DNA of 64,000 nt from Pseudomonadota bacterium (GTDB lineage: Bacteria; Pseudomonadota; Alphaproteobacteria; SP197): assembly GCA_039028155.1 (NCBI GenBank), contig JBCCIS010000008.1, positions 73,004 through 137,003 on the forward strand, read 5' to 3'. Made by a program: the position numbers and the translations under genes. The notes below the pieces were generated by a model that had not been told where the DNA came from, did no database searches, and saw nothing but the letters and a program-made list of their open reading frames with translations. This document shows, piece after piece, positions 40,764-64,000 of this stretch (the first letter of the stretch is position 1; every line of letters starts with the position of its first letter).

Positions 40764-40778
40764 GGTTAACCCCCGGCG

Positions 40779-45127: not shown

Positions 45128-45137
45128 CAACACGCAT

Positions 45138-47352: not shown

Positions 47353-48578
47353 ACCCGGCTCAGCGCCATCATCCCGGTCTGGCGTGCTTGGCTGCGTTGT
47401 CGACGCATTGTAATCCGTGAGAAGTCCGGCCAGAGGGAGACCAACGCCATAAAGAGAAACGCCTCCGTGCCCGAAGCTTCCAAGCCGCAGATGATCAGCG
47501 CCGTGATGTAAAAGATGACGAAGGAGAACAGATAGGCCTTGCGCGCCGGTGCGTCCATCTCACCGGTCAGCTTCATATAGCGCACGAAGCGAAGCGTTCG
47601 GTGGATCGCGGCGATCCAGATCAGCAGGTAGGCTGAAAGGCCGACCAGGCCATTCTCGACCATGATACGGAAGAACTCGCCATGGATAGATGTCCGCAAG
47701 AAGGGCGGGTAATAGGAAAACAACCTGTTGACCAGCATCTGGTAGCGGTTGGTACCGACACCGAACACGGGATGCTGCGAGAACAGTTCCATGCCCGCCT
47801 TGAAGGCGAAGATACGCTGTTCGTTGCTGAACGACACCGGCGCACCGGCCTGCGTATAACCGGTTTCGAATGCAAAGCTGCTGAGCTGTCGCAGCACGTA
47901 ATCGTCAACAAAGAAGACAGAAGCAGCCACAACGCAGATGATTGGCGCCACCAACGCCACAACAGCCTTGCTTGATCGCATGCCGATCAGGATCAGCAGT
48001 AGCGACAGGACGTAGACAATGAGCGCCTTGCGTTCTCCCGATATCAGGATCAATCCGCCCAACAAGCCGAACAACGCCAACTGCAAGAAGTTCGGCCGGA
48101 AGTTGCGCATCGCGATCCAGACCATGGTCAGCAGCGTGGCGACCGAGAACGTGTGCTTCAGTTCGTCCAGCCGCTTCCAGCCGGAGTAGTGGCCTTCGTT
48201 GACGTGCCAGCCGACGTTGAAGGCCAGAATGGCCCATGTAGCGCAAAACAGCACCCACCACTTCGCACCCCTGGGTGCTGGATCGTCGGCGTTGCAAAGG
48301 GCCAAAAGAAAAGCCATCAAGACACAAGCCTGAAGTCCTTCACGAATGCCGTTCGACTGGCCCACCATGAGGGCCGAGAACACGTGCACAAAAACGAATG
48401 GGAGCAGCAGCAGGTAGCCGGTCGGTAAGCGTATGTTCGCGCGCGCGAGGACCTTGTAGACCAGAAGGGCGGTCATCAATGCCGCGACGAAATCGAACGG
48501 CCGAAGCGTGATACCGCCGACCCGTTCCTCGATACCGCTGAACAGACTGAGTAGGGCAATAACGGCCAGCCAGGTCAT
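47349..48578 (-). CDS. O-antigen ligase / Wzy-like polysaccharide polymerase family membrane protein
   Basis: About 10 TM segments with a large periplasmic loop; 4-nt overlap with the downstream GT2 gene. Confidence 0.6.
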   Translation of the reverse strand: MTWLAVIALLSLFSGIEERVGGITLRPFDFVAALMTALLVYKVLARANIRLPTGYLLLLPFVFVHVFSALMVGQSNGIREGLQACVLMAFLLALCNADDPAPRGAKWWVLFCATWAILAFNVGWHVNEGHYSGWKRLDELKHTFSVATLLTMVWIAMRNFRPNFLQLALFGLLGGLILISGERKALIVYVLSLLLILIGMRSSKAVVALVAPIICVVAASVFFVDDYVLRQLSSFAFETGYTQAGAPVSFSNEQRIFAFKAGMELFSQHPVFGVGTNRYQMLVNRLFSYYPPFLRTSIHGEFFRIMVENGLVGLSAYLLIWIAAIHRTLRFVRYMKLTGEMDAPARKAYLFSFVIFYITALIICGLEASGTEAFLFMALVSLWPDFSRITMRRQRSQARQTGMMALSRV

Positions 48579-48774
48579 CGCGCCATCCGTCGGAAGAGGC
48601 CACGGCGATCGATGGCGGACCGGCTAGCTGTGTTATCGTCCATGACGGCAATTTATCATCAAAAGCATCGATTTAGCAGCGATCGTTTTCATTTGACCCC
48701 CTCGGTCGGCTAGGTAGTTTGTCTGCCCGTCGGGATCGCGCATCCGTCTATTCTGGCGTCAGGCAAGGCCACGC

Positions 48775-49797
48775 ATGATCGAGTTTTCCGTCGTCATACC
48801 GGTCTACAACAAAGAGCCCCATGTCGCCCGGGCGATCGCATCGGTCCTTAACCAATCATGTCCGCCCCGAGAAATCTTGGTGATCGACGATGCCTCGACC
48901 GACCGGTCGATCGAGATCATCGCCGAGATGGCTGGCGACAAGGTCCGAATGCTGGAGCGCGACACACCCGGACCCGGCGGATATGCAGCACGCAATCTTG
49001 GCATCAAGGAGGCGACGTCAGCGTGGATCGCGTTCCTGGATGCGGACGATGCGTGGAAACCCGATCACCTGGCCACACTCGACGCGACATTGGAGACGGC
49101 CCCTGACACGGTCGGCTGCGCCTTCGTCGGTAATCTCGTGCGTTCCAGCAGCGACGATGACGCCATGGCGGACACCGTCACCCGGATGCCCGTGTGCGAG
49201 ACCACGCATCTGGATTTCGATGACTTCCTCCGCCTGTGGCTCGCATTTGAGGATAGCCCGGTTCACACGTCGGGCACGGCAATCAAGCGGAGTGTCTTGT
49301 TGGACGTCGGCGGTTTCCCGGAGGGACGTTGCGAGCGCGGTGGCGACAAGGATTTGTGGCTTCGCACCTGCGCGGCGACCGAGGCGCTCGCCATCGCCAA
49401 GGTGACGTCGATCTACTATCGCGACGCCATCAATATGGTGACCCGGCAGGCCAGCCAGAACCGGGCGCATTGCATGTGTTATTCGCTGGACAAGCTTCAA
49501 GCCAGTTCCAGCGGGGAAAGGCGGAAGCTGCTTCAGAAGCTGCATAACTTCGAGGTCTTCCGTTATGCCGTCCTGTCGTGGCGCAAGGGCGATTTCGACC
49601 GGTCTCAGTTCCGGCAGTACTACACCCTGCGCGATCCCATAGGATTTTTGATGCTGCAGGGGATGAAGGTCGTGCCGGAGCGACGGGTCAGGATGTTCCG
49701 GCCGCTGCTGCGAAAGCTCAGGGGTGTTGCGTCCGGCAACCGGCAAGAGGTGGCGTCCGAACAGCGCGACGCCGGGCCTGAGCGCAAGACGACCTGA
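48775..49797 (+). CDS. Glycosyltransferase family 2
   Basis: FSVVIPVYNKE...VIDDASTD...FLDADD motifs. Confidence 0.8.
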   Translation: MIEFSVVIPVYNKEPHVARAIASVLNQSCPPREILVIDDASTDRSIEIIAEMAGDKVRMLERDTPGPGGYAARNLGIKEATSAWIAFLDADDAWKPDHLATLDATLETAPDTVGCAFVGNLVRSSSDDDAMADTVTRMPVCETTHLDFDDFLRLWLAFEDSPVHTSGTAIKRSVLLDVGGFPEGRCERGGDKDLWLRTCAATEALAIAKVTSIYYRDAINMVTRQASQNRAHCMCYSLDKLQASSSGERRKLLQKLHNFEVFRYAVLSWRKGDFDRSQFRQYYTLRDPIGFLMLQGMKVVPERRVRMFRPLLRKLRGVASGNRQEVASEQRDAGPERKTT

Positions 49798-49812
49798 CCG
49801 TGCGAGTTCGCG

Positions 49813-51375
49813 CTAGATGTGGAGGTCGGGTATCAGACGGCGCAGCGGCGATGGCGCCCTGCGTCGGAACTCCGACAGCAACCAGACCCCGTTCGGGCCC
49901 AGGAACCATGACGGCTTCAAAAGGCAGACGCCGTAGCCCACAAGGCCACCGGTGATGGCCTCGAGCGGAAACTGCAGGTTCTTTTGAACGCCGCTCCAGA
50001 CGAAATGCTCACCGATTGTGAGGGCCACCAGAATGGGCGCTGAGAGCAGAATTGCCGGAAGAACAGCTTTTCCAATGTCCAGCCACCTGACATGAAGAAG
50101 CCGGTTCGAGAGGTGCATGCAAAGAAGGCAGCACGAGGCATAGGTAAAGACGACGGCGACACTGATTCCGATGACACCGTAATCGCTGCCAATGAGACAC
50201 CCGACAATGATGACGGTCGCGAAGGCTGCTTGGCGGGTGACGACTTCCTTGGCTCTGCCCAAGGCCATGAAGACAACGTTGGCGACCCTTAGATTGAGGC
50301 CAAAGATCATGGTCAGTGACAGAATGGCCGTCGGGACGATGGCCGGTGTCCATCGCTCGCCCAGCAGCAGCAACACCAAACCCTCAGCGCCGTGGCAGAC
50401 CACCACCATCAGCGGCGCGGCGGCCAGCGAACAAAGGGCGACGGCGCGCAGATAGCCCCGTGCCATGCGTGCCCTGTCGTTGTTCATGTCGGACATGACA
50501 GGGAACAGCACGTTCGTCGAGCCCAACAGGATGAGCGGGAAGTCGACGACACGGTTGGCGCGGCTGAAGATACCCAGAGCATCCGCGCCCAACACGCGGC
50601 CGACGATGAACTTTGCCGCGTTGTCGGACAGAACCGCCAGCGCGCCGGCAAGACTGAAACCCAGGCTTACGCCCAACAGGTCGCGCATATGCGACGTGAT
50701 GGCGGGGATCGGGTTGAAGCGGGCGCACCAGAACAGCACGGTGGTTTGCGTGAAGGCCAGGGCGATGTTGGCAATGACCAAGGCCCAGACGCCATAGCCA
50801 GCGACCGCCAGCGCAATGGCTATGCCGGTCGTCGCAAACAGAGACGAGCCCATTTCGGTCAAGGCGACAAGACGGAACTTTTTCCTGCGCCGCAGCAAGG
50901 CTATCGAGATAGAAAGGATGGGGTTGATCAGAACGATCAAACACATGGCCTTGAGCACGTCGCTCAGCACCGGCATGTGGAAGAAGGTCGCGATAATGCC
51001 GGACCCGAACCAGATGAGGACAACCGCTAACAGGTGGATCAAGAGCCCGCCGGTGAAGGCGTTGCGTACATGTAACGGCACCAGATCCTGGCGCTGAATA
51101 ATCGCCATTGGAAATCCGCCTTGAACGAGGCCGGATCGGGCAATGCCGATAAAGATCATCGCGGCGGCAAAGACACCGTAGTCCTCGGGCGTCAGCAGGC
51201 GCGCCAGAACGGCGACCGTGCCGAGGCTGAACACCATCATGATGACCCGGGCACTTGCGATCCACGCCATCCAGCCGATGGTTTGCGATGACGTGCTGCC
51301 TGGTGTGCTCTTCAACCTTAATCCCGCGAGGTCCGTGCGTTGCTGAATGGCGCCAGCGTGTTTATCGAACGGCAT
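49813..51375 (-). CDS. Polysaccharide flippase (Wzx, MOP/PST superfamily)
   Basis: 12-14 predicted TM segments typical of Wzx; real start may be the internal Met (about 51270). Confidence 0.7.
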   Translation of the reverse strand: MPFDKHAGAIQQRTDLAGLRLKSTPGSTSSQTIGWMAWIASARVIMMVFSLGTVAVLARLLTPEDYGVFAAAMIFIGIARSGLVQGGFPMAIIQRQDLVPLHVRNAFTGGLLIHLLAVVLIWFGSGIIATFFHMPVLSDVLKAMCLIVLINPILSISIALLRRRKKFRLVALTEMGSSLFATTGIAIALAVAGYGVWALVIANIALAFTQTTVLFWCARFNPIPAITSHMRDLLGVSLGFSLAGALAVLSDNAAKFIVGRVLGADALGIFSRANRVVDFPLILLGSTNVLFPVMSDMNNDRARMARGYLRAVALCSLAAAPLMVVVCHGAEGLVLLLLGERWTPAIVPTAILSLTMIFGLNLRVANVVFMALGRAKEVVTRQAAFATVIIVGCLIGSDYGVIGISVAVVFTYASCCLLCMHLSNRLLHVRWLDIGKAVLPAILLSAPILVALTIGEHFVWSGVQKNLQFPLEAITGGLVGYGVCLLKPSWFLGPNGVWLLSEFRRRAPSPLRRLIPDLHI

Positions 51376-52047
51376 CAGCGCTACGAATCCATCCAGACCA
51401 CCGCGCCGACAGTCTGAAACACTGTTGTGACGTCAATGTCGCGAAAAATCTCGGAAGCGCCACTCAGCCTGGACGGTGCGACAAAGGCCGGTAGTTTGAC
51501 CTGGTTGTCAATCACTTCTTCGATGAATCCAGTGCCGGTAGACAGTGTGTGATGAGGTGCGCGCCGCTACTGTTGATTATCGGTTGCTGCCTGCCGCCAA
51601 GTGTCCGCCGGGCCTCGGAATACCCATTGTAATAGGAGAATAGTTTTTAAGTTAACTCGACCATAGATTGAGAAATCCCACATGCCTATCTGATGTTCGT
51701 CCGCCAAACGTTAGTAGGACACAAATCTACAACCTAAATTCTCGCAACACTTGCCCTTGTCTTCATGAATACCTGGTATCACACTACTTTGTAGAGCGCT
51801 CAAGATAGCCTCGCCTCGCCGTTTCGTCGGCGACAGGTTAAGGCTGTTTCCAAGTAGATTTGATGATCCCAGGCTCGCGAGAATTAGCTGTTGCCGTAGG
51901 CGGCGTGAGATACCGAGCGATCTATCCGCGACAAACCATCGCAGGGTATGTCCGGGCGGCTGTCTGCTTGGCCAAATCGGTGCGTTTTGTTCCCGGTTCG
52001 TGGGTTTGTCGCCCGTTGACTCGGTTGGCTGTTCGCGCGTGCCGGCC

Positions 52048-52929
52048 ATGACTGACCTTCGTCGCGTCGCCCGGCAGGTTGCCAAGGAGGCCTTTTGTGC
52101 TTCGCTTGAAGGCCTCTCTTTTGTCGATCGAAGCCTGCGTTACGATAGCGACTTCGAATGGCTGATCATTCTGACGATGCCGAACAGTGGGTCGACCGCG
52201 CTGGCTCGGCTCCTCATGACGGCGAACTCCACCATCGCGTTGACGGAGCAGTGTGAAGGCGAGTGGTTGATCCCGTCGATGTCCAATCTGCGTCATCGCT
52301 GGGATGAGGATTTGCGACTTTCCATGTCGCGCGTACGCGCCAGATGGATGTGGCGGTTGCGCGCGATGAAGACGGGTTCACCGAAACTGGTCATCGAGAA
52401 GTCGCCACCGAACATGGTGCGGATCGACCGTATTCGCGCGGCTCTCGCCCCCATGGCGGCGCACACGGTTGTCTTGGTACGCGACCCCTATGCAGTCTGC
52501 GAAAGCTGGCATCGGCGCTACGGTAGAGAGCAGCTCTCAAGAACCTCGTTGACCGCCCTGCAGCATGTCGACAGTGAACGTGACTACTTCAGGCTTCTGG
52601 GGGAATGCTGGGTCCAGCGTGGCACCTACCTCGTCGAACAGTTGCCAAAGGCGTTGAGCGTCGTGCGCTATGAAGAGCTTGTGATGGATCCCGGTGCCGT
52701 CACAGCGGAACTGGCAAAGAAAATACCCATGCTGTCCGATGTGCAAAGTAACGCAGAGGTCCGCGTCAAAGACTATGCCGCGCAGGCATTAACGGACATG
52801 AACAGTCAGCAGATTGACGCGCTTACCACCGAACAGATTGATGCTATTACGTGTGGACTTGAGCGCGGAATCGACACGGTAAAGGCGCTCGGCTACACAT
52901 TGCGGCACGAGAGGTCCGCGCGTCCTTAA
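52048..52929 (+). CDS. Sulfotransferase family protein
   Basis: 5'-PSB-like P-loop LTMPNSGSTALARLL and 3'-PB-like VLVRDPYAVCESW; ATG 52048 chosen over 52000. Confidence 0.6.
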   Translation: MTDLRRVARQVAKEAFCASLEGLSFVDRSLRYDSDFEWLIILTMPNSGSTALARLLMTANSTIALTEQCEGEWLIPSMSNLRHRWDEDLRLSMSRVRARWMWRLRAMKTGSPKLVIEKSPPNMVRIDRIRAALAPMAAHTVVLVRDPYAVCESWHRRYGREQLSRTSLTALQHVDSERDYFRLLGECWVQRGTYLVEQLPKALSVVRYEELVMDPGAVTAELAKKIPMLSDVQSNAEVRVKDYAAQALTDMNSQQIDALTTEQIDAITCGLERGIDTVKALGYTLRHERSARP

Positions 52930-53055
52930 CCGTCGGGTCGCCATGTCATACCGCATGACGGATACACGGTGCCTTCGTTGGGTGTGTGCGGATCTGACCG
53001 AGAACGTCCGCGTTCACCCACCGCGTCATGCGCTGTTTCGGAGACAACGCATTTT

Positions 53056-54246
53056 ATGATTGAGAATGCCTCCGCAGCGGCTGCGTCAGGTCGCAAGACC
53101 GTTGTCATGGTGAGCTTGGGCATGCCGCCTGAAATCTATGGCGGCGCTGAGCAACAGTGCTTGCGGCTATCTCGATCGCTTGTCGAGCGAGGGCGTGATG
53201 TCATCATCCTGACAGCGAGCCATTCCCAAGAGCATGCCGAAGATGACGTCATCGATGGCGTCCGGGTTATTCGATTCCCGACCCGACATTCACCCGACCA
53301 CGGCGGACGGCACATTCTGAGCACGGTCAAATGGACCACCGCGGTTTACGGGTGGCTGCGTCGACACCGCCGACAGATTGGTGTCGTCCACGTTCACCAA
53401 GGCAAGCTTCATGTCTTGCCCGCCCTCCTTGCCCAGGCGTGGTTAGGATTACCTTTTATCATGAAAGTCGGCAGCGCCGAGGAGCAGTTCGACTATCTGC
53501 GCATGACAAGAAAATCGGGCGGCTACGGGCCGCTCGTGCTCAAGCAAGTCATCAAGCGGTGCAGCCGACATGTCGCAATAAGCTCCAGAATTGTCGATCA
53601 GATGCGCCAGATCGGCGTGCCCTCTGACCGCATTCGTCGCATTCCCAATGGTATCGATATCGAACAATTTCCGTTTGACTCATCGCGTCATGCCGGCGAG
53701 GACAAGACGTTCGTCTTCATGGGCCGGCTGGTCGATGAAAAGCAGCCTTTGATGATGTTGCGGTGTTTCGCCGACATTCTCCAAGCAGGCGGCCGCCATC
53801 AACTGATTGTCATCGGCGATGGGCCGCTTCTCGAGACCATGGCGTCATTCGTGCGCGATAGCGGCCTTGTCGAAGGGGTCCAACTGGTGGGCCGTCTCGA
53901 CGATGTCAGGCCGGTCTTGTCGAAGGCCCATTTTTTCCTTCTCCCGTCCAAGAACGAGGGCATGTCCAACGCCCTGTTGGAAGCCATGAGCCTTGGCCTG
54001 GTCCCCATCGCCAGCGCCGTCAGCGGCAGCACCGATATCGTCCGCCATGATGACAACGGGTATCTGTTCGACCGGGACGACGAGGCCACCTTTACCGCTT
54101 GCTTGCGAACCGCGGCGAGCATGTCCGACGCCCACTGGCGGACCATGCGCGAGGCCGCACGCTTGACCATCGTTGGCGAACATGTGATGGCCGACATTGC
54201 AGGAACTTATGTTGACCTATACCAATCCTTAGGTCACGAACGCTGA
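53056..54246 (+). CDS. Glycosyltransferase family 4
   Basis: N-terminal GGAEQQCLRLSRSLVERGRDVIILT and a C-terminal GT4 domain. Confidence 0.8.
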   Translation: MIENASAAAASGRKTVVMVSLGMPPEIYGGAEQQCLRLSRSLVERGRDVIILTASHSQEHAEDDVIDGVRVIRFPTRHSPDHGGRHILSTVKWTTAVYGWLRRHRRQIGVVHVHQGKLHVLPALLAQAWLGLPFIMKVGSAEEQFDYLRMTRKSGGYGPLVLKQVIKRCSRHVAISSRIVDQMRQIGVPSDRIRRIPNGIDIEQFPFDSSRHAGEDKTFVFMGRLVDEKQPLMMLRCFADILQAGGRHQLIVIGDGPLLETMASFVRDSGLVEGVQLVGRLDDVRPVLSKAHFFLLPSKNEGMSNALLEAMSLGLVPIASAVSGSTDIVRHDDNGYLFDRDDEATFTACLRTAASMSDAHWRTMREAARLTIVGEHVMADIAGTYVDLYQSLGHER

Positions 54247-54357
54247 GGACGAAGCTTTGCGGGTCGCCATGTCGGGCGAAGTGATGGTGACGGCCCTGCC
54301 GAGCGTAAGCTCCTCTCTTGTTTTATGACTTGTCTCAAAGGTTAAGGCCGTTCCTGT

Positions 54358-55323
54358 ATGAGTACCTTAAGGTCACGGGCGATGGTTGACGCTGGCGGTA
54401 AAGAAAAAATCGATAACGATGTGCCATTGGTGAGCATTGGCCTGCCGGTTTTTAATGGCGAAAACTATCTTCGCCAGTCCATTCAATCTATCCTCGACCA
54501 GACATTTCAAGACTTTGAGTTGATTGTCTCTGACAATTGTTCGACTGACGGAACCGAAGACATTTGCCGTGAGTTTGCCGCCAAGTCGGACAAGATCCGC
54601 TACTACAGGCAGACCGAGAACGTTGGCGCCTCCGCCAACTTTGATTTCACCTACCTTCAGGCCAAAGGCAAGTACTTCAAGTGGCAAGGACATGACGACT
54701 ATGCCTATCCAGAGTTTCTGGAGAAGTGCCTTGATCGCCTATTGAAAGAACCGGACGCCATTCTCTGCCAATCACACGTTGCGGTTGTCGATTCCCATGA
54801 CGAGCTCATCGAGGTCGAGGCCCATGAGACCCGTGGAACCAACAGTGACGATCCGATCAAACGATTCGCAGGCCGGCTGAGCAACCCGCGGTGCACGGAG
54901 ATCTTTGCCGTGTTTCCGACCGAGGTTCTTAGAGACACCGAGCGCCTGGGCGCGTTCGCCAGCAGCGACCGCTGCCTCTTGTCGCAGCTCGCGCTGAAAG
55001 GCCGGTTTTTGGACGTTCCCGAGGTGCTCTTTGCCTTTCGCATTCACCCCGAGCAGTTTTCGTCACAAGTCATGCGTCGCGGCAACTTCATGTACTGGTT
55101 CGACCCGAACCGCGCGGAATGGCCGACCATGCGCCACTGGACGCATTTTCTGCGATGCATTCGCTATCTAAGCTCGGAAGACCTTAGTTTTTGGAACCGC
55201 GTGCGCGGGTTTGGCGCGCTGTTTCGTGCTCAGATCAAGCCGAAGAGTTTGCGCGCCTACTTCCGCGAGAGTGGCCGCATGGCAAAGTACGGCGCTCGCA
55301 GGCTACTGGCCAAACTGACATAG
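54358..55323 (+). CDS. Glycosyltransferase family 2
   Basis: VSIGLPVFNGENYLRQSIQSILDQTFQDFELIVSDNCSTDGTEDI; notably lower GC (about 50%). Confidence 0.8.
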   Translation: MSTLRSRAMVDAGGKEKIDNDVPLVSIGLPVFNGENYLRQSIQSILDQTFQDFELIVSDNCSTDGTEDICREFAAKSDKIRYYRQTENVGASANFDFTYLQAKGKYFKWQGHDDYAYPEFLEKCLDRLLKEPDAILCQSHVAVVDSHDELIEVEAHETRGTNSDDPIKRFAGRLSNPRCTEIFAVFPTEVLRDTERLGAFASSDRCLLSQLALKGRFLDVPEVLFAFRIHPEQFSSQVMRRGNFMYWFDPNRAEWPTMRHWTHFLRCIRYLSSEDLSFWNRVRGFGALFRAQIKPKSLRAYFRESGRMAKYGARRLLAKLT

Positions 55324-55345: not shown

Positions 55346-56281
55346 TCAGACGAACCACTTCTTCCAGTTCAGCGGTGAACGCGCCGGGTACTGAGGTTGA
55401 TAGCCCTCATGAACCAGGCAATCGCGCGCGACCGATTCAAAGTCGTCTATCTCGTTGGGTGTCAGGCTGGTTTGCCACGCGGTGATGCGGTCGGCCTGGG
55501 GCGCCTTGTTGACGTTGCTGTGCAGCTCAGGCCGGTATCTGTCGGCAATCTCGTACGTGCGCGGCATGTCGGACTGCTGGGTCGGTTTGACGTCAAGGAA
55601 CTCGGCGACCTCGGCCATCGTACGCTCGGTCTCGCGAATGAGCGTCTCGTAGTTCAAAATCAGGACGCCGCGATGGTCGAGCTCCAATTCGCGCAACAAG
55701 GTTGTTGTCTGGACCCATCGTTTGGCTGCGATCTTGGGGTCGTTGGCCATCGGTCTGCCGTTGCGCGATGCGATCGCCCTCTTCTTTGAATGAAACACGG
55801 CGCGGCCGTCTCTGATCAGCCCGATAAACTTGGCCGACGGGAACATCCTGAGGATTTCGCGGTAATCGTGAACGTACTTACCGTTCTTGATGCCGTAGCG
55901 GAAGTTGCTGGGTACGAGCTGGGCGCGATAGTAGTCCAGAATGATACGAACCGCGTCGGCCAGCGTTAGTGGCGCATGGTTGGACAACAGGCCCCGCAAG
56001 ACCGGGTAGGTGACCTTGAGGTCGGCGAACTTTCTGTCCGACGTAATGGTCATCGCCAGAGAGTCGAGTTGTGCCTCGGTCTCGAACGTGATGAACCCGA
56101 AATTCTCAAGCGTATCGGTAATGAAGTTCGTCTCAGGCGTGATGACGACCTGAAATCGCTTCGACAGCTCGTTCGCAAGGAACGTGGAACCCGACCGTGA
56201 GTCATAGAGGATGAAGAACGGATCCTCTTCACTCTTCGTTTCGACGCTTGTGACAACCTGACTAACCATCAACTCTTCCAC
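55346..56281 (-). CDS. Sulfotransferase family protein
   Basis: YDSRSGSTFLANEL (PAPS 5'-phosphosulfate-binding-like P-loop) and LIRDGRAVFHS (3'-PB-like RDPR motif). Confidence 0.6.
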   Translation of the reverse strand: MEELMVSQVVTSVETKSEEDPFFILYDSRSGSTFLANELSKRFQVVITPETNFITDTLENFGFITFETEAQLDSLAMTITSDRKFADLKVTYPVLRGLLSNHAPLTLADAVRIILDYYRAQLVPSNFRYGIKNGKYVHDYREILRMFPSAKFIGLIRDGRAVFHSKKRAIASRNGRPMANDPKIAAKRWVQTTTLLRELELDHRGVLILNYETLIRETERTMAEVAEFLDVKPTQQSDMPRTYEIADRYRPELHSNVNKAPQADRITAWQTSLTPNEIDDFESVARDCLVHEGYQPQYPARSPLNWKKWFV

Positions 56282-56941
56282 TTATTGGACGACCGTCCAT
56301 CCCTACGAACCAGCCTTACGATCCCATCCTTTCGTTCTACGCGATGCCGATCAGCGGCTGTAGAGAGGGCAATTGCAGTCAACGTTTCCCATTTGTCGGT
56401 CAAGGCAGTCGCTTGGTCGAATTGTTCGGTGCAATGACAAATCCGGCAAGGGCCTGGACTCCGATGAACTTGACGCTGTCATCACGTCGACGAACCGCAG
56501 GCGCGGCCAATTGACCGCGCGCATCGCCGATAACGAACATTGGTTCTTATGCACTCTAACACCGCGAACACTACCGCCAAAAAACCGCGTTTCAGCGAGG
56601 CTACCCTGATACCCCTTATGGATATCATACCAATTTAGAGGTATAGATCGCCACCCTGAAATGCAGAATTTCTGGGCCTTGTGTGGAGAGGACACTGCGA
56701 GAGGACGTTGCTGTCGGCGATTTCTGTTGGTTTTTCGCTCTGCCGGGTGTTTTTGGGTTCCCAAGACAACCTTTTGCCTACAAAAGCGGCCATATGGTGA
56801 CCCGGTCGCCCATCTTGTGCGGCCTGCGTGGTTTTTTGAGTCGACAGTGTTTGGAACGGAGCGCGTGGCGCCGCAAAGTCGGTAAGCCCGGGCGTTGCCG
56901 GCGATGTGGTTTCGAGACGACCTGCTAGGCGGACCGTGGGA

Positions 56942-57652
56942 ATGACTAAACAGACGACCCAGCTATCCTATGAGCGGCAGACCTATCGCAGCGTCAACCC
57001 GTTGGCGCGGTTCGCGCACGGCTCGCGGTTCGGCTTGTCGCAATCGCTTGCCTCCGGGAATCTGCCGTCGGGCGCGACGCTTATCGACTATGGCGCCGGC
57101 GACGGGCGCTTCCTTAGAGACCTCTCGCAGATGCGATCGGATGCCGAGCTCTATGGGCTGGAGCCCTATATGAAGCCGCCTGCCGACGGTGATCGGGGCT
57201 TTACGCGTCTAACGGCTCTGGAACAGGCGCAAGGGCGTGAGTACGGCGTGATCACATGTTTCGAAGTGCTGGAACATCTGGAGCCTGCCGACACCGATAT
57301 CTTTGTCGATTTTGTCCAGCAGTCTCTCGCACCGGATGGTTACCTCATTGTCAGCGTTCCAATCATGTACGGACCCGTCCTGGTTCCCAAAGCGCTGAAC
57401 GCGAAGTACGTCAAGAAGAGCGATTGGAGCTATTCGCTGACGGAGTTGATCCGGGGCGTCCTTGCGCGGCCTGTAGAGCGTGACCCGGGAAACCTCTACC
57501 TCAATCACAAGGGTTACGATTGGCGCAAGACGCGCGATCGGTTGAACATGCATTTTGAGGAGGCGGAATGCCGGTTCAGCCCGTTCTCGTCGTTGTGGTG
57601 GGGGTTCAACAGCCAGTGGTTCGGCGTCTTCCGGAAGCCGCGCGCGCAATGA
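56942..57652 (+). CDS. Class I SAM-dependent methyltransferase
   Basis: Motif I LIDYGAGDGRF; post I LYGLEP; VITCFEVLEHLEP. Confidence 0.75.
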   Translation: MTKQTTQLSYERQTYRSVNPLARFAHGSRFGLSQSLASGNLPSGATLIDYGAGDGRFLRDLSQMRSDAELYGLEPYMKPPADGDRGFTRLTALEQAQGREYGVITCFEVLEHLEPADTDIFVDFVQQSLAPDGYLIVSVPIMYGPVLVPKALNAKYVKKSDWSYSLTELIRGVLARPVERDPGNLYLNHKGYDWRKTRDRLNMHFEEAECRFSPFSSLWWGFNSQWFGVFRKPRAQ

Positions 57653-57668
57653 TCGTGCGGACGGCTTC

Positions 57669-58532
57669 GTGACTCAAAATGAGACCGTCGGCGACCATGC
57701 CGAAACCGTCGCTAACGACAGCGGGCGTGCACCGCGCGCGCGCGTTGACCGTGCCATTCTGCTCAACTGTTTCGGGCGCGGCGGATCAAGCATCGCCTGG
57801 AACATGATCGGCAGTTCGCCCGACGTCCTGATGCCAGCAAGCGAGTGGCATCATGGCTTTTATGGGCGTTGGCAGATTGTTGGCCGATCGCTCAGACGTG
57901 TCGTTCGCGCCACGCAAGCCGACGTCCCTGCATTGGCGCCTCTGTCGGGCCTTCTCTACAAACGCGCATGCGCTTCCGTGCCGGCGACCGAACGAGACGC
58001 CAAACCTGGCGCGTCGTCGGTCGTTTTGAAGGTCATGGACCATCACATTGCCATGAACCCGACCCTCGCGACGAGTTTCCCCAGCACGAGCCAGGTCGTT
58101 CTTGTTCGCCATCCGTTGGCCCAGTGCGAGAGCTTGCTGCGCCACGGGCTCGATATAGGCCAGGCGACTGCTTGGTATGTCGACGTGATGCGGCGGATGA
58201 TCAGGCTGGCCGAGACACCGGGTACGATCGTCTGTCGTTTTGACAACCTCGTGCGCGATCCCTTTGCCGAACGCGATTTCCTTTACGACAAACTCGGGCT
58301 GACAAGACCGCAACCGGATGGGTTCGCGCTGAAGCGCAAAAAGTTTGGCGCGGAGCGCACAACCGACGTCAAGGTTGCCGCCGGCGACTATGTCGACGTC
58401 ACGCCTGGTAATGTTGCCGAGCTCATCGACAAGGATGTCAATGAACGTTCGATTGCCAGGCTTTCTGACAGCAACAAGGAGCATGTGTGGAAAGCAACCG
58501 ATGAGGTAGCATCTTACTTCGGCTACAATTAA
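57669..58532 (+). CDS. Sulfotransferase-like protein (paralog of 52048-52929)
   Basis: LLNCFGRGGSSIAWNMI P-loop and VLVRHPLAQCESL resemble the 52048 gene motifs; GTG start inferred and uncertain; the ORF extends upstream into the methyltransferase gene. Confidence 0.45.
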   Translation: MTQNETVGDHAETVANDSGRAPRARVDRAILLNCFGRGGSSIAWNMIGSSPDVLMPASEWHHGFYGRWQIVGRSLRRVVRATQADVPALAPLSGLLYKRACASVPATERDAKPGASSVVLKVMDHHIAMNPTLATSFPSTSQVVLVRHPLAQCESLLRHGLDIGQATAWYVDVMRRMIRLAETPGTIVCRFDNLVRDPFAERDFLYDKLGLTRPQPDGFALKRKKFGAERTTDVKVAAGDYVDVTPGNVAELIDKDVNERSIARLSDSNKEHVWKATDEVASYFGYN

Positions 58533-58773: not shown

Positions 58774-59751
58774 TTGGAACAGATTCGACCAATCTTTATC
58801 TTTTCTCTGCCGCGAAGCGGGTCGACGTTGCTACAGCGGATTCTCGCCGCCCACGACCGCATCGAGACAACGACGGAACCCTGGTTGCTTCTGCCGCAGT
58901 TTTACGTCTTCAGGCCCGAACGCGCAGCGTCGGAATACGGTCATCGCCTGTGCAGCACGGCTATTGGTGAGTTTGTCGCCGGGCTGCCGGATGGCGAGGC
59001 GTCCTACCGTCGTGCGATAAACTCATTTGCCTCGCAGCTCTATCGTGAAGCAGCTGGCCCGAGCGCTCGATACTTTGTCGACAAGACACCTATCTACAGC
59101 CTTGTCGTTAGCGAGATCATGGAGACGTTTCCGGAGGCCAAATTTCTGTTTCTGTGGCGCAATCCCCTCGCCATTGTCTCATCGCTCATCACGACATACG
59201 GGCGTGATCGCTTCAATATCGTGCGGTTCAAACTGGAACTCTTCAATGGCCTTGACAATCTTCTTCAGGCCAATCGGAGCCATGAAGGAACGTCGTTTGC
59301 GCTGCGTTTCGAGGACTTGACTGAACGGCCGAGCGTTGTCTTGCCGAGAGTCTTCGAGTTCCTTGAATTGCCTTATGACGAGTCTGTTCAGCAAGAGTTT
59401 TCGCGTGTTTCGTTAGACGGGGTGCACGGCGACCACACGGGCAGCGTTCGATACGACAAACTCTCGACGGAACCTCTCGACAAGTGGAAGAACGTTCTGA
59501 CGAACAAGCTGAGAAAGCGGTGGTCAGCGCGTTATCTCAGATGGATGGGTGAAGATAGGCTCTGCGCGATGGGTTATGAGCTCAATGAGCTGATGCAAGA
59601 CCTGGAGAATGTGCCGGGTAGTCGAGATCACCTTGCCGCCGATGCCTACACCTACGCGAAACAGACGTTCTTTGCGTTGCTGCAATGGCAGCTCATCAGG
59701 ACGCGCTACCACCTGCGACGCAAGGGATTGCCCCTGGTCACCTACGACTGA
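58774..59751 (+). CDS. Sulfotransferase family protein
   Basis: FIFSLPRSGSTLLQRIL P-loop and LFLWRNPLAIVSS 3'-PB-like motif; TTG start. Confidence 0.65.
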   Translation: MEQIRPIFIFSLPRSGSTLLQRILAAHDRIETTTEPWLLLPQFYVFRPERAASEYGHRLCSTAIGEFVAGLPDGEASYRRAINSFASQLYREAAGPSARYFVDKTPIYSLVVSEIMETFPEAKFLFLWRNPLAIVSSLITTYGRDRFNIVRFKLELFNGLDNLLQANRSHEGTSFALRFEDLTERPSVVLPRVFEFLELPYDESVQQEFSRVSLDGVHGDHTGSVRYDKLSTEPLDKWKNVLTNKLRKRWSARYLRWMGEDRLCAMGYELNELMQDLENVPGSRDHLAADAYTYAKQTFFALLQWQLIRTRYHLRRKGLPLVTYD

Positions 59752-59773
59752 TTTGTCTGGTCTGGCGAGCCGG

Positions 59774-61069
59774 TCAGGACGAAAACAAGCGGTCTTGTTC
59801 GGCGCGCAACCGGACCATCAGACTGTTGTCGTCGAGGGTGACGTCGTCATAGGTGATGGCACTGTCTTGTGAGACATCACGCGTCAGAACCGCGCCTTCG
59901 ACGAGACCGAAGGGTAAGAGCCGGTCGCGGCGAACGATGTCGTGGTTCTCGCACAGCCCGTAGGACATGTAGCCGCCAAGCCCGTCGAGCGTTTCGCCAC
60001 GCTTCAGGTCGCGCTTGGCAATGGCGATAACATCGACCACCGGCGCGCCGCGTGGGGCGATGATGACATCGTTGGCAAGCGCGACGCGCGCCGCGGAAAG
60101 AGGCACCTCGAAGACCATCAGATGGTAGGGGACATAGAAACTGTACAACGGCCCCTCGCCAAGTTTGGCGTAGTTCAGATAGTGGCGTTGCATATCGTCT
60201 TGGGCTTCGGCGAAAACGTAAACACCGGGACTGGGCTCGGCGCCGAGCACGTAGTCGACTATGCCGCCCAACTCCCGGACACGGTCGATGTCGTAGTGGC
60301 CGATCAGCTCGTCGACATGGCCTTTCAGCTCCGGGCCAATCATGCCCCGTTGGGCAACGCGCATGCCCGTCGCGTTGCCGACAATGGCCTGCTCGAACGC
60401 GATCTTGGTGCCGTCGGCGAAGCTTGTCACCATATGCGGCGTTTGATTCCACTGCTTGGCGAACTTCGCCTGCGTCGTTGGGTTGCGATAGTGGTCCAGC
60501 AAGCCCTTGATGTTGCCGCAAACCAGAGGCCGCAGGCCGATGCTCTGAACGAAGCGATAGAGGTTCATCTGTACGCCCGGCTGATCGCCGTCGCAGCCAG
60601 TCAAGATGACGCCGGTGTCGTCGGCACGCTTCTTGAGTAGCGGTCCGATGGAGCCATCCAGTTCGGCGTTCATCAGCACCATTGACTTGCCGTTCTCGAT
60701 CGCCGTCAGAACAACCTGGGCGCCGTAGGCAATGTGACCGGTCGCCTCGATGAGCACCTCGACCTGACCGGAGGCGCAGACGGCGTCGAGGTTGTCGGTC
60801 AGCGCGGTCTTGCCCATCTCGATGGCGTGGTCGACGGCCACGGCGCTGTTTGCTTCGATGATGTCGGCGGCGTCGACACCGGCGTCTTCCAACGCTTTGC
60901 GGGCGGTCGCAAACGTTCGATTGCACAGCGCCGCGACGCGCATGCCCGGCATGTAACGGACAATCTGATTGATGAAACCACGGCTCATCGAACCGGCACC
61001 TATAACGCCGACTCTCAGCGGATCATGTGCGCGCGCTCTTTCATCTAGCAGCGTATCGACAATAACCAT
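59774..61069 (-). CDS. NAD(P)-binding oxidoreductase, homoserine-dehydrogenase-like with C-terminal SAF domain (COG4091-like)
   Basis: N-terminal Rossmann fold VGVIGAGSMSRGF; homoserine-DH-like central domain; about 100 C-terminal residues compatible with a SAF domain; transcribed after rfbG-rfbF. Confidence 0.5.
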   Translation of the reverse strand: MVIVDTLLDERARAHDPLRVGVIGAGSMSRGFINQIVRYMPGMRVAALCNRTFATARKALEDAGVDAADIIEANSAVAVDHAIEMGKTALTDNLDAVCASGQVEVLIEATGHIAYGAQVVLTAIENGKSMVLMNAELDGSIGPLLKKRADDTGVILTGCDGDQPGVQMNLYRFVQSIGLRPLVCGNIKGLLDHYRNPTTQAKFAKQWNQTPHMVTSFADGTKIAFEQAIVGNATGMRVAQRGMIGPELKGHVDELIGHYDIDRVRELGGIVDYVLGAEPSPGVYVFAEAQDDMQRHYLNYAKLGEGPLYSFYVPYHLMVFEVPLSAARVALANDVIIAPRGAPVVDVIAIAKRDLKRGETLDGLGGYMSYGLCENHDIVRRDRLLPFGLVEGAVLTRDVSQDSAITYDDVTLDDNSLMVRLRAEQDRLFSS

Positions 61070-61154
61070 CTCAGGCTCCGGTCGTGGGAATGGGTGATGG
61101 GGTCCGTTTCGCGTACGGCGTTACGCGGCATCCGACGATTGGGCAGCGAACGGC

Positions 61155-61946
61155 CTAATCACGATGCGACGTCTTTTCTTCCCAAACCTGCCAAGGCGGG
61201 TTCTCTGAAGCCCATTGTTCCTCCAGGACCTTTCTATCTCTCAGCGTATCCATGTTCTGCCAGTAGCCATCATGGACATAGGCCGCGAGCTTGCCGCGTT
61301 GGACGAGATGCTCCATGGGTTCGCGTTCCCACACGGTGTCGTCGCCGTCGATAAGATCAAAGACCTCCGGCTCCAGAACAAAAAATCCGCCGTTGATGTA
61401 AGCGCCGTCGCCGTGTGGCTTTTCACGGAAGTTGACGATCTTCTCGTTTTGAATCTGCAGGGCGCCAAAACGGCCGGGCTGCTGGACCGCGGTCAGCGTC
61501 GCCCATGCGCCCGAGTCCTTGTGAAACTTGATCAGCTTGTTGATGTCGAGATCGCTAACACCGTCGCCATAGGTCAGACAGAACGTTTCATCGCCGACAA
61601 AATCGCGCACGCGTTTCAGCCGGCCGCCGGTCATGGTGTTCAGGCCGGTGTGAACACAAGTGACGGTCCAGTCCTCGCCGGGCTCTGAATGGGCCTCCAG
61701 GGTGTTGTTCTTCAGGTCAAACGTCATATCCGCGTTACGCACAAAGTACTCCGCGAAGTACTGTTTGATCAGATGTCCCTTGTAGCCGCAGCAAACGATG
61801 AACTCGTTGAGACCGTGCGCGGCATAGATCTTCATGATGTGCCACAGGATCGGTTGTTCACCGATGTTGATCAGCGGTTTCGGCATCGTGCCGCTGGCTT
61901 CGGAGATGCGGGTGCCAAAACCGCCAGCTAAGACGACGACCTTCAA
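61155..61946 (-). CDS. rfbF: Glucose-1-phosphate cytidylyltransferase
   Basis: MKVVVLAGGFGTRISE...PKPLINIG N-terminus and full-length similarity to RfbF/DdhA. Confidence 0.9.
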   Translation of the reverse strand: MKVVVLAGGFGTRISEASGTMPKPLINIGEQPILWHIMKIYAAHGLNEFIVCCGYKGHLIKQYFAEYFVRNADMTFDLKNNTLEAHSEPGEDWTVTCVHTGLNTMTGGRLKRVRDFVGDETFCLTYGDGVSDLDINKLIKFHKDSGAWATLTAVQQPGRFGALQIQNEKIVNFREKPHGDGAYINGGFFVLEPEVFDLIDGDDTVWEREPMEHLVQRGKLAAYVHDGYWQNMDTLRDRKVLEEQWASENPPWQVWEEKTSHRD

Positions 61947-62131
61947 CGGCTGGCCCCTTTACAAAAGTTCTGAAAAATCAAATGTCTAACTCTCATGGTT
62001 CGATAGGCGTGATTGTAGCGGGAAAAGACAGCGGCACCATTTCATTTCTTGAGGCAGCGCTGATCGGACAGCGGCATTGCACCGGAGTTCTGCCGGTTTC
62101 GCAGCGTGCCGGTCGTGGTGCTAACCAGTTG

Positions 62132-63217
62132 TCATGGCGCGGCGGTTTGGTAGGCGTTGATCTCGGACAGGGTGACAGAGCTCATGTCGGCGCCATCAAG
62201 CCACTGGCGAAACCACGACGCGACCGATGCGATGGCGATACGGCCGACCATCTCATCGTCCCAGCCTAACGTGGACCGGGCAAGCGAGGCATCGATTTGA
62301 AGGTACGGTGCTTCGATCGATCCGGGAACCGGTTCGACGAGGACCTTTGGACAGCCGTTGGCGGTGACGTGACCCAAAGCGCTGAGCAACGTTTCGGCAA
62401 AGATCCGGACCGGCAGGTCCTCAGACGAGCGCGGGCCTATGTTGAGCGTCCGCGGGCAAGAAGGATCCTGTGAGAGCGTCTCGACAAACAGAAGATAACC
62501 GCACAGGCAATCGAGCGCATGCTGCCATGGGCGCGTTGCTTCGGGATGCCGCAATGTCAGCGGCTCACCTTCCAATGCTGCACGCACACAGTCGGGCGCA
62601 ATGCGATCGGCGGCGAAGTCACCGCCACCGATGACATTGCCGCCACGCGACGTCGCAACGCGAATGCCATCGCGTTCGAAGTAGCTTTGAGCGTATGTAT
62701 GCGCGACGTGTTCGGCGGCCGCCTTGGAGGCGGAGTAGGGGTCTTTGCCACCCAAGGGTGCCGACTCCTTAAATGCGCATCCGCAGCCATTGTTCCAATA
62801 GACCTTGTCCGATGTAACAATCAGGACGGTGTGCAGATCGGTCTCGCCGCGCAACGCTTCCATGAGATTGACCAATCCGGTCACATTGGTGTCGAACGTC
62901 TCGATCGGATCTTCAAGCGAGCGGCGCACTAGTGCCTGGGCGGCCAGATGGAGGACGATTTCCGGGCGGGCTTCACGCACCGCGTCGGCAACGGAGGAGG
63001 CGTCACGCAGATCGACGAAGTGGCTGTCGCAATGGCTCGCCACATCGGCCAAGCTGAAAAGGTTCGGGCCGTCCGCCGGGGGCAGGGCAAACGCGTAGAC
63101 ATCGGCGCCCAACTGGCTGAGCCAAAGCGCCAACCACGACCCCTTGAAGCCGGTGTGCCCCGTCAGCAGCACACGTCGGCCATTCCAAAATTCCTGATCT
63201 GGCCGCCGAACGCTCAT
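62132..63217 (-). CDS. rfbG: CDP-glucose 4,6-dehydratase
   Basis: LLTGHTGFKGSWLALWL Rossmann fold and YSASKAAAE catalytic YxxxK; ATG at 63217 chosen (MSVRRPDQEFWNGRRVLLTGHTG). Confidence 0.85.
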   Translation of the reverse strand: MSVRRPDQEFWNGRRVLLTGHTGFKGSWLALWLSQLGADVYAFALPPADGPNLFSLADVASHCDSHFVDLRDASSVADAVREARPEIVLHLAAQALVRRSLEDPIETFDTNVTGLVNLMEALRGETDLHTVLIVTSDKVYWNNGCGCAFKESAPLGGKDPYSASKAAAEHVAHTYAQSYFERDGIRVATSRGGNVIGGGDFAADRIAPDCVRAALEGEPLTLRHPEATRPWQHALDCLCGYLLFVETLSQDPSCPRTLNIGPRSSEDLPVRIFAETLLSALGHVTANGCPKVLVEPVPGSIEAPYLQIDASLARSTLGWDDEMVGRIAIASVASWFRQWLDGADMSSVTLSEINAYQTAAP

Positions 63218-63472
63218 GCGGACCTCCGTCGTCTTCCGCAACAGGCAACAACTGGCCGTGCGATGAGGCGAACACACTCATTGCCCTATTTTGCACCCTA
63301 GGGCTGTGATCCATCCATACTTTGACCGCAATTTCTGCCGACTACCGCTTTTGCGCCAAAAGCAGCCGATAGAGCTACTCGCGCGCGCCCTGTCCGCTCT
63401 AAGTCGTGATGGGGCGTTTAATCGCGTCTTTTCGCGTGGTAAATCTAACTCGAAAGTAGAGTCGTTCCGGTG

Positions 63473-64000
63473 TCACTCTACCTGATAGTCGTCGATCGCC
63501 GCCACATCGCAAATCATGAGTGGGGCTGCATCGCTGTTGGCCGCGAGCCAGCTCTTTGCCCAACGTGTGCCGAGCTCCTTGTCGGCTGGTGATGTCGAGT
63601 GTTCGATCAAGGCAATATTGGTCAAGAACAGGAGGTAGTTGATCTGCGCGTCGTTCTGCGCCTGTCGATCAATGCCGCGAGCGCAGGCTAGGGCGACCAG
63701 CAGCCACTGATAAACCCGCGCGCGTTTATCCTCAGCGTCCGACAGGGCCCAGTATGTTGCCAGGTGCCGTTGCGCGGTCGGCCGTGCCGCAAGTGCGGCA
63801 TCTTCCAAGATATTGCGGCCTTGCTCGATCTTGTCGGGATCCCCGGTCAGGATCATCTGAAGCGCGGCACGTTCGTTCTCGCTCTCGACGATCATCGATT
63901 CAAGAAGCTGATTGAGCGAGACGCTGCCGTTTTCTTGAGGTTGTTGCATGGCGTAAATCGCGGCGACGACAAATGCCGTTATCGCGGCAACGACGATGTA
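63473..64000 (-). CDS. Hypothetical protein; the N-terminus, including a TM helix, runs off the window end
   Basis: 158-aa ORF. The in-frame upstream 17 codons to the window edge encode the hydrophobic YIVVAAITAFVVAAIYA, so the real start probably lies beyond 64000. Confidence 0.35.
   Translation of the reverse strand, partial: YIVVAAITAFVVAAIYAMQQPQENGSVSLNQLLESMIVESENERAALQMILTGDPDKIEQGRNILEDAALAARPTAQRHLATYWALSDAEDKRARVYQWLLVALACARGIDRQAQNDAQINYLLFLTNIALIEHSTSPADKELGTRWAKSWLAANSDAAPLMICDVAAIDDYQVE

Follow-up and report, generated by a model that had tools for sequence, protein, structure and literature searches.

A CDP-sugar operon with a DLO1-type terminal oxidoreductase and a distant rmlC: a candidate four-enzyme route to an uncommon CDP-6-deoxyhexose in an alphaproteobacterial polysaccharide cluster

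Introduction

The subject of this report is a 64-kb stretch of alphaproteobacterial DNA (contig JBCCIS010000008.1 of the assembly GCA_039028155.1, positions 73,004 to 137,003, with a G+C content of 60.8%), referred to in its whole length as the window, and in particular the three consecutive genes found on its minus strand at positions 59774-63277 in the order rfbG, rfbF, oxidoreductase. The first two encode a cytidine diphosphate (CDP)-glucose 4,6-dehydratase and a glucose-1-phosphate cytidylyltransferase, and the third an NAD(P)-dependent enzyme, and the question raised by the locus is which sugar is being made here and what the third enzyme contributes to it. The first-pass annotation of the window had remarked on the lack of rfbH, the gene for the pyridoxal phosphate (PLP)-dependent 3-dehydrase, as well as on an rmlC gene at the far end of the locus, and had suggested an uncommon CDP-6-deoxyhexose as the product.

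In the model proposed here, the operon and the distant rmlC would together constitute a single four-enzyme nucleotide-sugar pathway, which would feed a rare sugar into a sulfated exopolysaccharide. RfbF would convert glucose-1-phosphate to CDP-glucose, which RfbG would dehydrate to CDP-4-keto-6-deoxy-D-glucose, following which the RmlC-type enzyme would epimerize the intermediate beside its keto group, at C5 and/or C3. The oxidoreductase, an enzyme of the so-called DLO1 type, would carry out the last, NAD(P)H-dependent step, taking the place of RmlD or the other short-chain reductases of known pathways; in its simplest form this step would be a stereospecific reduction at C4, with the product being subsequently used by one of the glycosyltransferases of the cluster. 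The chances appear about even that C4 reduction after epimerization yields a CDP-6-deoxy-L-hexose, of the L-rhamnose, 6-deoxy-L-talose or 6-deoxy-L-altrose configuration. The prediction of the first two steps follows from above-threshold equivalog matches and conserved catalytic motifs, and that of the third from the family to which the enzyme belongs, its conserved catalytic residues and the recurrent linkage of its gene, with gene context being the sole source for the predicted fourth.

The CDP-sugar operon

The gene with which the operon begins, rfbG (62132-63217, minus strand), matches the CDP-glucose 4,6-dehydratase model TIGR02622 with 376.9 bits against a cutoff of 278.45 and over model positions 1-351 of 352. 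A longer open reading frame (ORF) with a GTG start reaches 63277, the likely start being the ATG at 63217. The RfbG protein aligns end-to-end (residues 8-358, E 1.9e-83) with the Yersinia pseudotuberculosis enzyme of PDB entry 1RKX, such that its VTSDKVY and YSASK stretches stand opposite ITSDKCY and YSNSK of the latter, with TSDK and YxxxK being kept. In short-chain dehydrogenases/reductases (SDRs) of this kind, as seen in the Yersinia and Salmonella structures, Tyr-x-x-x-Lys is the catalytic motif and Ser/Thr-Asp-Lys the dehydration motif. The second gene, rfbF (61155-61946, minus strand), matches the glucose-1-phosphate cytidylyltransferase model TIGR02623 over its full length (positions 1-255 of 255) with 410.1 bits, the cutoff being 300.25. 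The third gene, 59774-61069 on the same strand, encodes the 431-residue oxidoreductase. The genes are separated by gaps of 185 bp (rfbG/rfbF) and 85 bp (rfbF/oxidoreductase), and scans of 59000-64000 for promoters and terminators gave nothing above the shuffled background. The NCBIfam and Pfam matches confirm the coordinates and gene calls of rfbG, rfbF, the oxidoreductase and rmlC as originally annotated.

The set of ORFs scanned against Pfam comprised 54 that were picked by length and G+C content at third codon positions over the window, together with the ORF 57555-58532. Among these there is no DegT/RfbH-type enzyme and no RfbI, nor is there an RmlA, RmlB or RmlD, and neither an extended-SDR sugar reductase nor a protein resembling UDP-galactopyranose mutase is present among the main ORFs. 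The sole other SDR of the window, encoded at 27077-27973, is a classical FabG-like protein and lies outside of the polysaccharide cluster. A route to a 3,6-dideoxyhexose within the window was rejected, as both rfbH and rfbI are missing.

That rfbH does not lie just past the edge of the window can be concluded from the two closest relatives of the locus, L001 (on a 2.75-Mb contig) and L085, in which the order rfbG-rfbF-oxidoreductase is the same, the oxidoreductases are 88% and 93% identical to that of the window, and no rfbH is found upstream of rfbG. The genes that precede rfbG in both relatives encode a small conserved protein, Rieske dioxygenase subunits, a GntR regulator and an FAD protein; the small protein of L001 is 87% identical to the product of the window ORF 63473-63949, and its RfbF is 95% identical to that of the window. 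The reported absence of rfbH has thus held up both in the scanned ORFs of the window and beyond its edge in these syntenic relatives.

Recurrence of the module

The role of the oxidoreductase is predicted from the genes with which it is found, here and elsewhere. A total of 83 loci were analyzed by tblastn and ORF clustering, 80 of them from a scan of one genome per species, to which the window and the loci L001 and L002, fetched via the exact protein, were added. The homologues of the 80 scanned loci are 56-65% identical to the window protein and derive from cyanobacteria, Alpha-, Beta- and Gammaproteobacteria, Deinococcus, Chloroflexota and others. Of the 83 loci, 75 contain an RmlC-like gene, which usually stands directly upstream of the oxidoreductase gene, with a median gap of 66 bp. 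In 51 of 74 loci the end of the RmlC-like ORF is no more than 1 kb upstream of the oxidoreductase, on the same strand, and overlapping ORF calls are the only difference in most of the others. The gene of a glucose-1-phosphate cytidylyltransferase is found in 67 of the 83.

The source of the keto sugar, on the other hand, varies among three alternative cassettes, which never co-occur in these loci. The canonical CDP-glucose 4,6-dehydratase RfbG is found in 12 loci, including the window; modules of this type are carried by, for example, the cultured strains Anabaena sp. 4-3 and Leptolyngbya cf. ectocarpi LEGE 11479. In another 15 (L002, L003, L004, L005, L008-L014, L022, L037, L051 and L067) the cassette consists of a nucleotide-sugar dehydrogenase and a UXS/ArnA/RmlB-like SDR, which directly follow the oxidoreductase gene in every case, and the oxidoreductases of these loci are the closest to the window protein outside of its own lineage (61-68% identical). 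The third cassette, a GalE-like SDR, is found in 45 loci, 41 of which also encode an LhgO-like FAD oxidase. Each of the three would plausibly deliver a nucleoside diphosphate (NDP)-4-keto sugar, namely a 6-deoxyhexose from RfbG, a pentose from the dehydrogenase cassette and a hexose from the GalE-like SDR and FAD oxidase, and the gene content of the dehydrogenase loci suggests a branch of the same module that leads from a CDP-hexuronate to a 4-keto-pentose. Since the keto-sugar source varies among three mutually exclusive cassettes, the constant core of the module is the epimerase and the oxidoreductase, positioned after the formation of the 4-keto sugar.

In the RfbG-type loci, the RmlC-like gene is present in 11 of the 12, and the order rfbF, rfbG, rmlC, oxidoreductase is found, with the genes close together, in ten, in several of them as one compact operon; these four are the only gene families common to all or nearly all loci of this type. 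In L062 and L068 the operon ends at the oxidoreductase and the next genes lie on the opposite strand, and therefore no other reductase belongs to the operon. With no further NAD(P)-dependent enzyme remaining in the dehydratase-type modules, the oxidoreductase is predicted to be the one that completes the pathway. Together with the precedent of Campylobacter jejuni HS:41 discussed below, the linkage to RmlC and the ten four-gene loci lend support to the suggestion, made already in the first-pass annotation, of an uncommon CDP-6-deoxyhexose that is formed without a 3-dehydrase.

The independence of the oxidoreductase from its cassette is seen in the Nostocales, in which two oxidoreductases, encoded by L021 and L029 (each at 10001-11287), are 87.6% identical and stand beside different cassettes, the FAD oxidase with the GalE-like SDR in the former and RfbG in the latter. 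This implies a recent cassette exchange within heterocyst-polysaccharide islands, and it follows that the role of the oxidoreductase is independent of the cassette. Five full-length loci (L016, L017, L069, L079 and L081) contain the RmlC-oxidoreductase pair without any of the three cassettes, their neighbouring genes not being SDRs; here the cassette probably sits elsewhere, as does the rmlC of the window.

The FAD oxidase of the third cassette is a fixed member of the RmlC-oxidoreductase module in 41 cyanobacterial loci and in Coxiella. When compared with the model named "L-2-hydroxyglutarate oxidase", for which the cutoff is 299 bits, the oxidases of L053 (6904-8121) and of the Coxiella locus L083 (8765-9991) score 617 and 317 bits, respectively. 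This name is probably wrong for the module enzyme, which is instead a candidate for the NDP-glucose C4 oxidase of the dihydrohydroxystreptose pathway.

The RmlC-type epimerase

The window rmlC (36052-36582, minus strand) encodes an RmlC-type NDP-4-keto-sugar 3,5-epimerase, which scores 182.1 bits against the model TIGR01221 (cutoff 155.75) and is 44-56% identical to the oxidoreductase-adjacent RmlC-like proteins of 74 other loci. Its residues His62, Lys72 and Tyr132 do not vary when the protein is aligned with six oxidoreductase-linked homologues and with the Coxiella burnetii protein CBU1838, an enzyme assigned to the synthesis of dihydrohydroxystreptose by Cross et al. (PMC9095892), in whose work the catalytic roles of the corresponding His, Lys and Tyr are described. 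As is also clear from that work, these residues do not predict whether an RmlC-type enzyme performs mono- or double epimerization. The first-pass annotation called this gene an orphan. It does indeed stand by itself at the far end of the cluster and without rmlA, rmlB and rmlD, but because RmlC-like genes accompany the oxidoreductase in 75 of the 83 loci, it is the usual partner of this enzyme, displaced by 23 kb in the window, rather than an orphan.

At the position of CBU1838 Met123, a residue that has been proposed to leave space for the 6-hydroxyl, the window protein has the usual Phe (residue 122), and among the six other oxidoreductase-linked RmlC-like proteins of the alignment Tyr is found in five and Phe in one, irrespective of their cassette.

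The terminal oxidoreductase

The oxidoreductase matches the Pfam families DRL_cat (PF21135, 175.5 bits), SAF (32.5 bits) and NAD_binding_3 (31.6 bits), the last being a NAD-binding domain of the homoserine-dehydrogenase type; against NCBIfam, no model is matched at its curated cutoff, the best score being 27.7 bits compared with a cutoff of 205. Among solved structures, its sole relatives are those of Brucella abortus DRL/DXR-II, 3UPL and 3UPY, to which it is homologous over the full length (E 1e-69). Its AlphaFold model (pLDDT, the predicted local distance difference test score, of 82) was matched by Foldseek to 3UPY with a template modelling (TM) score of 0.90 and 34% identity. The remaining PDB matches have TM scores of 0.43 or less and comprise Gfo/Idh/MocA enzymes, homoserine dehydrogenase and KijD10, an NDP-sugar 3-ketoreductase, the distant fold resemblance to which is counted as support for the role of a sugar reductase. 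The earlier description of the protein as a homoserine-dehydrogenase-like oxidoreductase with a SAF domain is correct as regards these two domains and too narrow as a label, the protein being a member of the DRL/DXR-II family and of DLO1 type. The very-low-confidence stretches of the model are limited to short loops (residues 190-194, 216-218, 244-246 and 315-317), which flank the invariant GNIKG, DGTK and PYH motifs and may, judging from the model, be mobile active-site loops.

The DRL-like family was divided by Carretero-Paulet et al. (2013, PMC3847144) into the true DXR-II enzymes and two uncharacterized clades, DLO1 and DLO2, of which DLO1 is distinguished by the replacement of DXR-II Thr229 with Leu, Ile or Val and by the loss of His250; the DXR-II active-site residues considered here were taken solely from this source. 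In the window oxidoreductase, Thr229 of the Brucella enzyme corresponds to Ile223, His250 to Ile244 and Glu168 to Gln163. These exchanges extend to the whole set of 83 homologues, position 229 being Ile in 82 and Val in one, Glu168 being Gln in all, and His250 being replaced in all, mostly by Leu or Ile; in Coxiella, position 229 is Val. Lys191 and Lys193, likewise tied in DXR-II to the binding of substrate and fosmidomycin, were not relied upon, since the HMMER alignment pairs them with Asn186 and Lys188 (the latter lysine thus being kept), and MAFFT introduces a gap at this place, where GKGKN of Brucella faces the GNIKG loop of the window clade. The residues tied in DXR-II to the binding of substrate and fosmidomycin (Thr229, and also His250) are consequently not those of the window protein, which instead has the hydrophobic residue at 229 and the lost His250 of DLO1.

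Hirschia, Nostoc PCC 7120, Coxiella burnetii and Streptomyces griseus all figure among the published DLO1 entries (PMC3847144), and relatives of the first three carry the same module as the window. The window protein is 65% identical to a Hirschia litorea protein and 57-59% identical to Nostocales proteins, and on the strength of these identities and of the residue signature it is treated here as DLO1-type; its identity to Coxiella DLO1 (35-37%) is no higher than that to Brucella DXR-II (36%). In the paper that defined the DLO clades no mention of polysaccharides or of genomic context was found (PMC3847144), and a limited search of the literature yielded nothing that links the DLO1 clade to nucleotide sugars.

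Alternative explanations

Three points weigh against the C4 reduction of an epimerized intermediate as the final step: the window rmlC lies 23 kb from the CDP-sugar operon, the FAD-oxidase modules hold more redox enzymes than a sequence of oxidation, epimerization and reduction needs, which hints at extra chemistry, and the sole characterized relatives of the oxidoreductase are reductoisomerases and not simple reductases. The last bears on a different model, in which the enzyme would act as a DXR-like reductoisomerase and contract the ring of the epimerized CDP-4-keto-6-deoxyhexose to give CDP-dihydrostreptose (5-deoxy-3-C-hydroxymethyl-L-lyxofuranose). The ring would be contracted by an alpha-ketol (acyloin) rearrangement, with C2 migrating from C3 to C4, following which the new aldehyde would be reduced by NAD(P)H; elsewhere, the same core would lead to dihydrohydroxystreptose when part of a Coxiella-type module, and to an apiose-like sugar when part of a decarboxylase-type one. 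The reaction of DXR and the ring contraction leading to streptose-type sugars are formally the same chemistry, the extension of which to the oxidoreductase is made by us and is counted in favour of this model. All characterized homologues and all solved structures of this fold are DXR-II reductoisomerases (PMC3847144), the Coxiella homologue is encoded two genes downstream of CBU1838 in the same operon, and the ring-contracting synthase of Coxiella is still being sought (PMC9095892). Furthermore, Coxiella burnetii and Streptomyces griseus, the two organisms known to make streptose-type sugars, are both on the short DLO1 list, and the strict pairing with RmlC across three sources of keto sugar suggests a chemistry that an ordinary reductase would not need. 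On the other hand, Glu168, Thr229 and His250 of DXR-II are replaced in every one of the 83 homologues. We know of no branched-chain sugar reported from heterocyst envelope polysaccharide, the synthesis of which depends on such a module, and this too counts against ring contraction. A dxr mutant was complemented by none of four DLO representatives (PMC3847144), which shows only that DXP (1-deoxy-D-xylulose 5-phosphate) is not used, and the contraction of the ring was expected by Cross et al. of an RmlD-like SDR (PMC9095892), an SDR being in fact present in the Coxiella-type modules. Overall, ring contraction in the window appears possible and short of probable, and it is equally tentative that DLO1-type enzymes are in general the ring-contracting "synthases" of streptose-type sugars, with CDP-dihydrostreptose being made by the window genes and CBU1836 being the dihydrohydroxystreptose synthase of Coxiella.

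That rmlC lies outside of the operon, and is not found within 10 kb in L001 and L085 either, would be explained if CDP-4-keto-6-deoxy-D-glucose were reduced without epimerization, to CDP-D-fucose or CDP-D-quinovose, with rmlC having some other job or being a remnant; the C4-reductase of C. jejuni does accept the non-epimerized substrate (PMC12369002). This is nevertheless unlikely given the RmlC linkage over the whole set of loci and in all but one of those of RfbG type, the lack of rmlA, rmlB and rmlD by which rmlC could be given another job in the window, and the location of rmlC within the same polysaccharide cluster, beside the gene of the initiating transferase. Rather improbable, and somewhat more so, is a scheme in which rfbF and rfbG feed a 3,6-dideoxyhexose or another pathway that is completed elsewhere in the genome, with the oxidoreductase acting on an unrelated substrate. 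While the lack of an assigned function for the DLO family would leave room for it, rfbH and rfbI are missing from the 64 kb and from the genes upstream of rfbG in both relatives, the oxidoreductase gene follows rfbF on the same strand after only 85 bp, and it is found together with cytidylyltransferase and RmlC genes in different phyla. The last alternative, that of a true DXR-II making methylerythritol phosphate for isoprenoids and standing beside sugar genes by chance, has in its favour that the best PDB match and the fold are those of the Brucella enzyme; it was rejected on residue signature and context, and can be regarded as very improbable indeed, since the residues that mark DXR-II and hold fosmidomycin and substrate are replaced (Ile for Thr229 and His250, Gln for Glu168), the identity of 36% to Brucella DRL compares with 56-67% to homologues in nucleotide-sugar operons, and the DLO members assayed had no DXR activity (PMC3847144).

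The surrounding polysaccharide cluster

The first 34 kb of the window contain housekeeping genes, among them those for AcrB, ThyX, MiaA, ilvBNC, mreBC, PBP2 and RodA. According to the Pfam scan, these are followed by a Wzx/Wzy-type polysaccharide cluster that spans 36052-63277, with rmlC at one end and the CDP-sugar operon at the other. Beside rmlC lies the gene of the initiating sugar-phosphate transferase (37367-38824, minus strand; Bac_transf with 226.7 bits and CoA_binding_3), an arrangement that recurs on an independent contig (L086). The genes for export and chain length occupy 39426-43859 on the plus strand and encode a beta-barrel porin (BBP2_2), a Wza-like Poly_export protein and a Wzc-like Wzz/GNVR/AAA_31 protein. 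Six glycosyltransferases (three GT4 and three GT2) are encoded within 43970-55323, as are a Wzy-like polymerase (47349-48578) and a Wzx flippase (49813-51375).

The last part of the cluster is dominated by modifying enzymes, namely sulfotransferases encoded at 52000-52929 (plus strand), at 55346-56281 (minus strand; Sulfotransfer_3), at 57555-58532 (plus strand; a weak match) and at 58774-59751 (plus strand; Sulfotransfer_3), the last being convergent with the CDP-sugar operon, and a methyltransferase at 56906-57652 (plus strand; Methyltransf_23). As listed, the ORF 57555-58532 overlaps that of the methyltransferase by about 100 bp; because its Pfam match begins only at residue 73, its true start is probably further downstream. 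One of the sulfotransferases of the cluster matches NoeE, a nodulation sulfotransferase, below threshold. Sulfotransferase genes are found at the same place, after the oxidoreductase, in L001 and L085, with the methyltransferase gene also present in L085. From these four sulfotransferases and the methyltransferase, the exopolysaccharide made by the cluster would be expected to be heavily sulfated and possibly O-methylated.

Significance

The DLO1 branch has been without a function since it was defined in 2013, and the gene context described here places it last in a nucleotide-sugar module of wide distribution. The module occurs in the heterocyst envelope polysaccharide (HEP) island of Anabaena and in the Coxiella region presumed to make dihydrohydroxystreptose, a component of the only defined virulence factor of this organism and one for the synthesis of which two activities are missing. 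The gene set as such is already present in many public genomes, and parts of it are listed without function in the HEP and Coxiella literature; what is new here is a known kind of pathway with a terminal enzyme from a family without an assigned function. The RfbG-type module is the smallest version: four enzymes make it up, the substrate from which it starts can be bought, and redox enzymes that might compete are absent, so that the function of the terminal enzyme is directly testable in vitro. A simple reduction, if true, would establish a new fold family of nucleotide-sugar 4-ketoreductases. Ring contraction, if true, would explain how streptose-type sugars are made and would render branched-chain furanoses far commoner than thought, with their presence extending to heterocyst envelopes and to many proteobacterial and cyanobacterial polysaccharides.

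Comparison with known systems

The closest pathway by description is that of C. jejuni HS:41, in which, as reported by Simons, Narindoshvili and Raushel (2025, PMC12369002), a cytidylyltransferase, a 4,6-dehydratase, a 3,5-epimerase and an NADPH-dependent C4-reductase, which also takes the non-epimerized substrate, lead to CDP-6-deoxy-L-altrose and CDP-D-fucose, and which ends with an FADH2-dependent pyranose/furanose mutase. The window shares with it the first three enzymes and the lack of a PLP-dependent 3-dehydrase, whereas the terminal enzyme is of the DRL/DXR-II family instead of an SDR-type C4-reductase, and no mutase is found in the window. The pathway, said in the first-pass annotation to be poorly characterized, deserves that description for its terminal enzyme, but not for CDP-6-deoxyhexose routes in general, as HS:41 attests (PMC12369002). 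With the classical RmlABCD and DdhABCD (RfbFGHI) pathways the window has in common the activation and 4,6-dehydration of the sugar and, as in the rml pathway, epimerization would precede reduction. It differs from RmlABCD, which makes dTDP-L-rhamnose, in the CDP carrier, in a terminal reductase of another fold family and in the lack of RmlA, RmlB and RmlD, and from DdhABCD in that RfbH and RfbI are absent from the window. The Brucella abortus DXR-II shares full-length homology and the same three-domain fold with the window oxidoreductase, whose residue signature and context are, however, not those of a DXP reductoisomerase. The streptomycin genes strP, strQ, strX and strU, for a CDP-glucose synthase and for dehydratase-like, epimerase-like and oxidoreductase proteins, may represent the same module.

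The Coxiella burnetii locus (L083) was obtained by rebuilding the CBU1838 sequence from PDB entry 7PVI, finding the protein and fetching its surroundings. The region cbu1834-cbu1838 contains candidate genes for dihydrohydroxystreptose synthesis, and the operon found here, which includes the FAD-oxidase gene adjoining CBU1838, encodes an LhgO-like FAD oxidase, the RmlC protein CBU1838, an SDR, a 418-residue DRL_cat protein and an FAD protein, and an RmlA-type thymidylyltransferase (TIGR01207, 453.7 bits) is encoded nearby on the opposite strand. The FAD protein, the gene of which directly follows that of the DRL_cat protein (12879-14258 of the locus), has a weak match to UDP-galactopyranose mutase (TIGR00031, 44.9 bits), and the oxidase and the SDR are 36% identical over their length to their cyanobacterial counterparts. 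The motifs GDQ, GNIKG and DGTK-hydrophobic of the window oxidoreductase are present in the DRL_cat protein, which is only 35% identical to it, and the module differs from that of the window in the source of the keto sugar, which is the LhgO-like FAD oxidase and a GalE-like SDR instead of RfbG, and in activation by a thymidylyltransferase. Two enzymes of dihydrohydroxystreptose synthesis, the C4 oxidase and the synthase that contracts the ring, still await identification according to Cross et al. (PMC9095892).

In Anabaena (Nostoc) PCC 7120, the HEP island includes alr2825 (glucose-1-phosphate cytidylyltransferase), alr2827 (epimerase/dehydratase), alr2830 (rfbC) and alr2831 (NAD(P)-dependent oxidoreductase), and the island alr2825-alr2831 is required for the heterocyst envelope polysaccharide (PMC4390870). 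Judging from the accession numbering, alr2831 would be the DLO1 protein listed for PCC 7120. The Nostocales loci of the survey have the same gene set as this island; most of them differ from the window in carrying the cassette of FAD oxidase and GalE-like SDR, whereas a minority, represented by Anabaena sp. 4-3 and Chrysosporum bergii, resemble the window in using RfbG.

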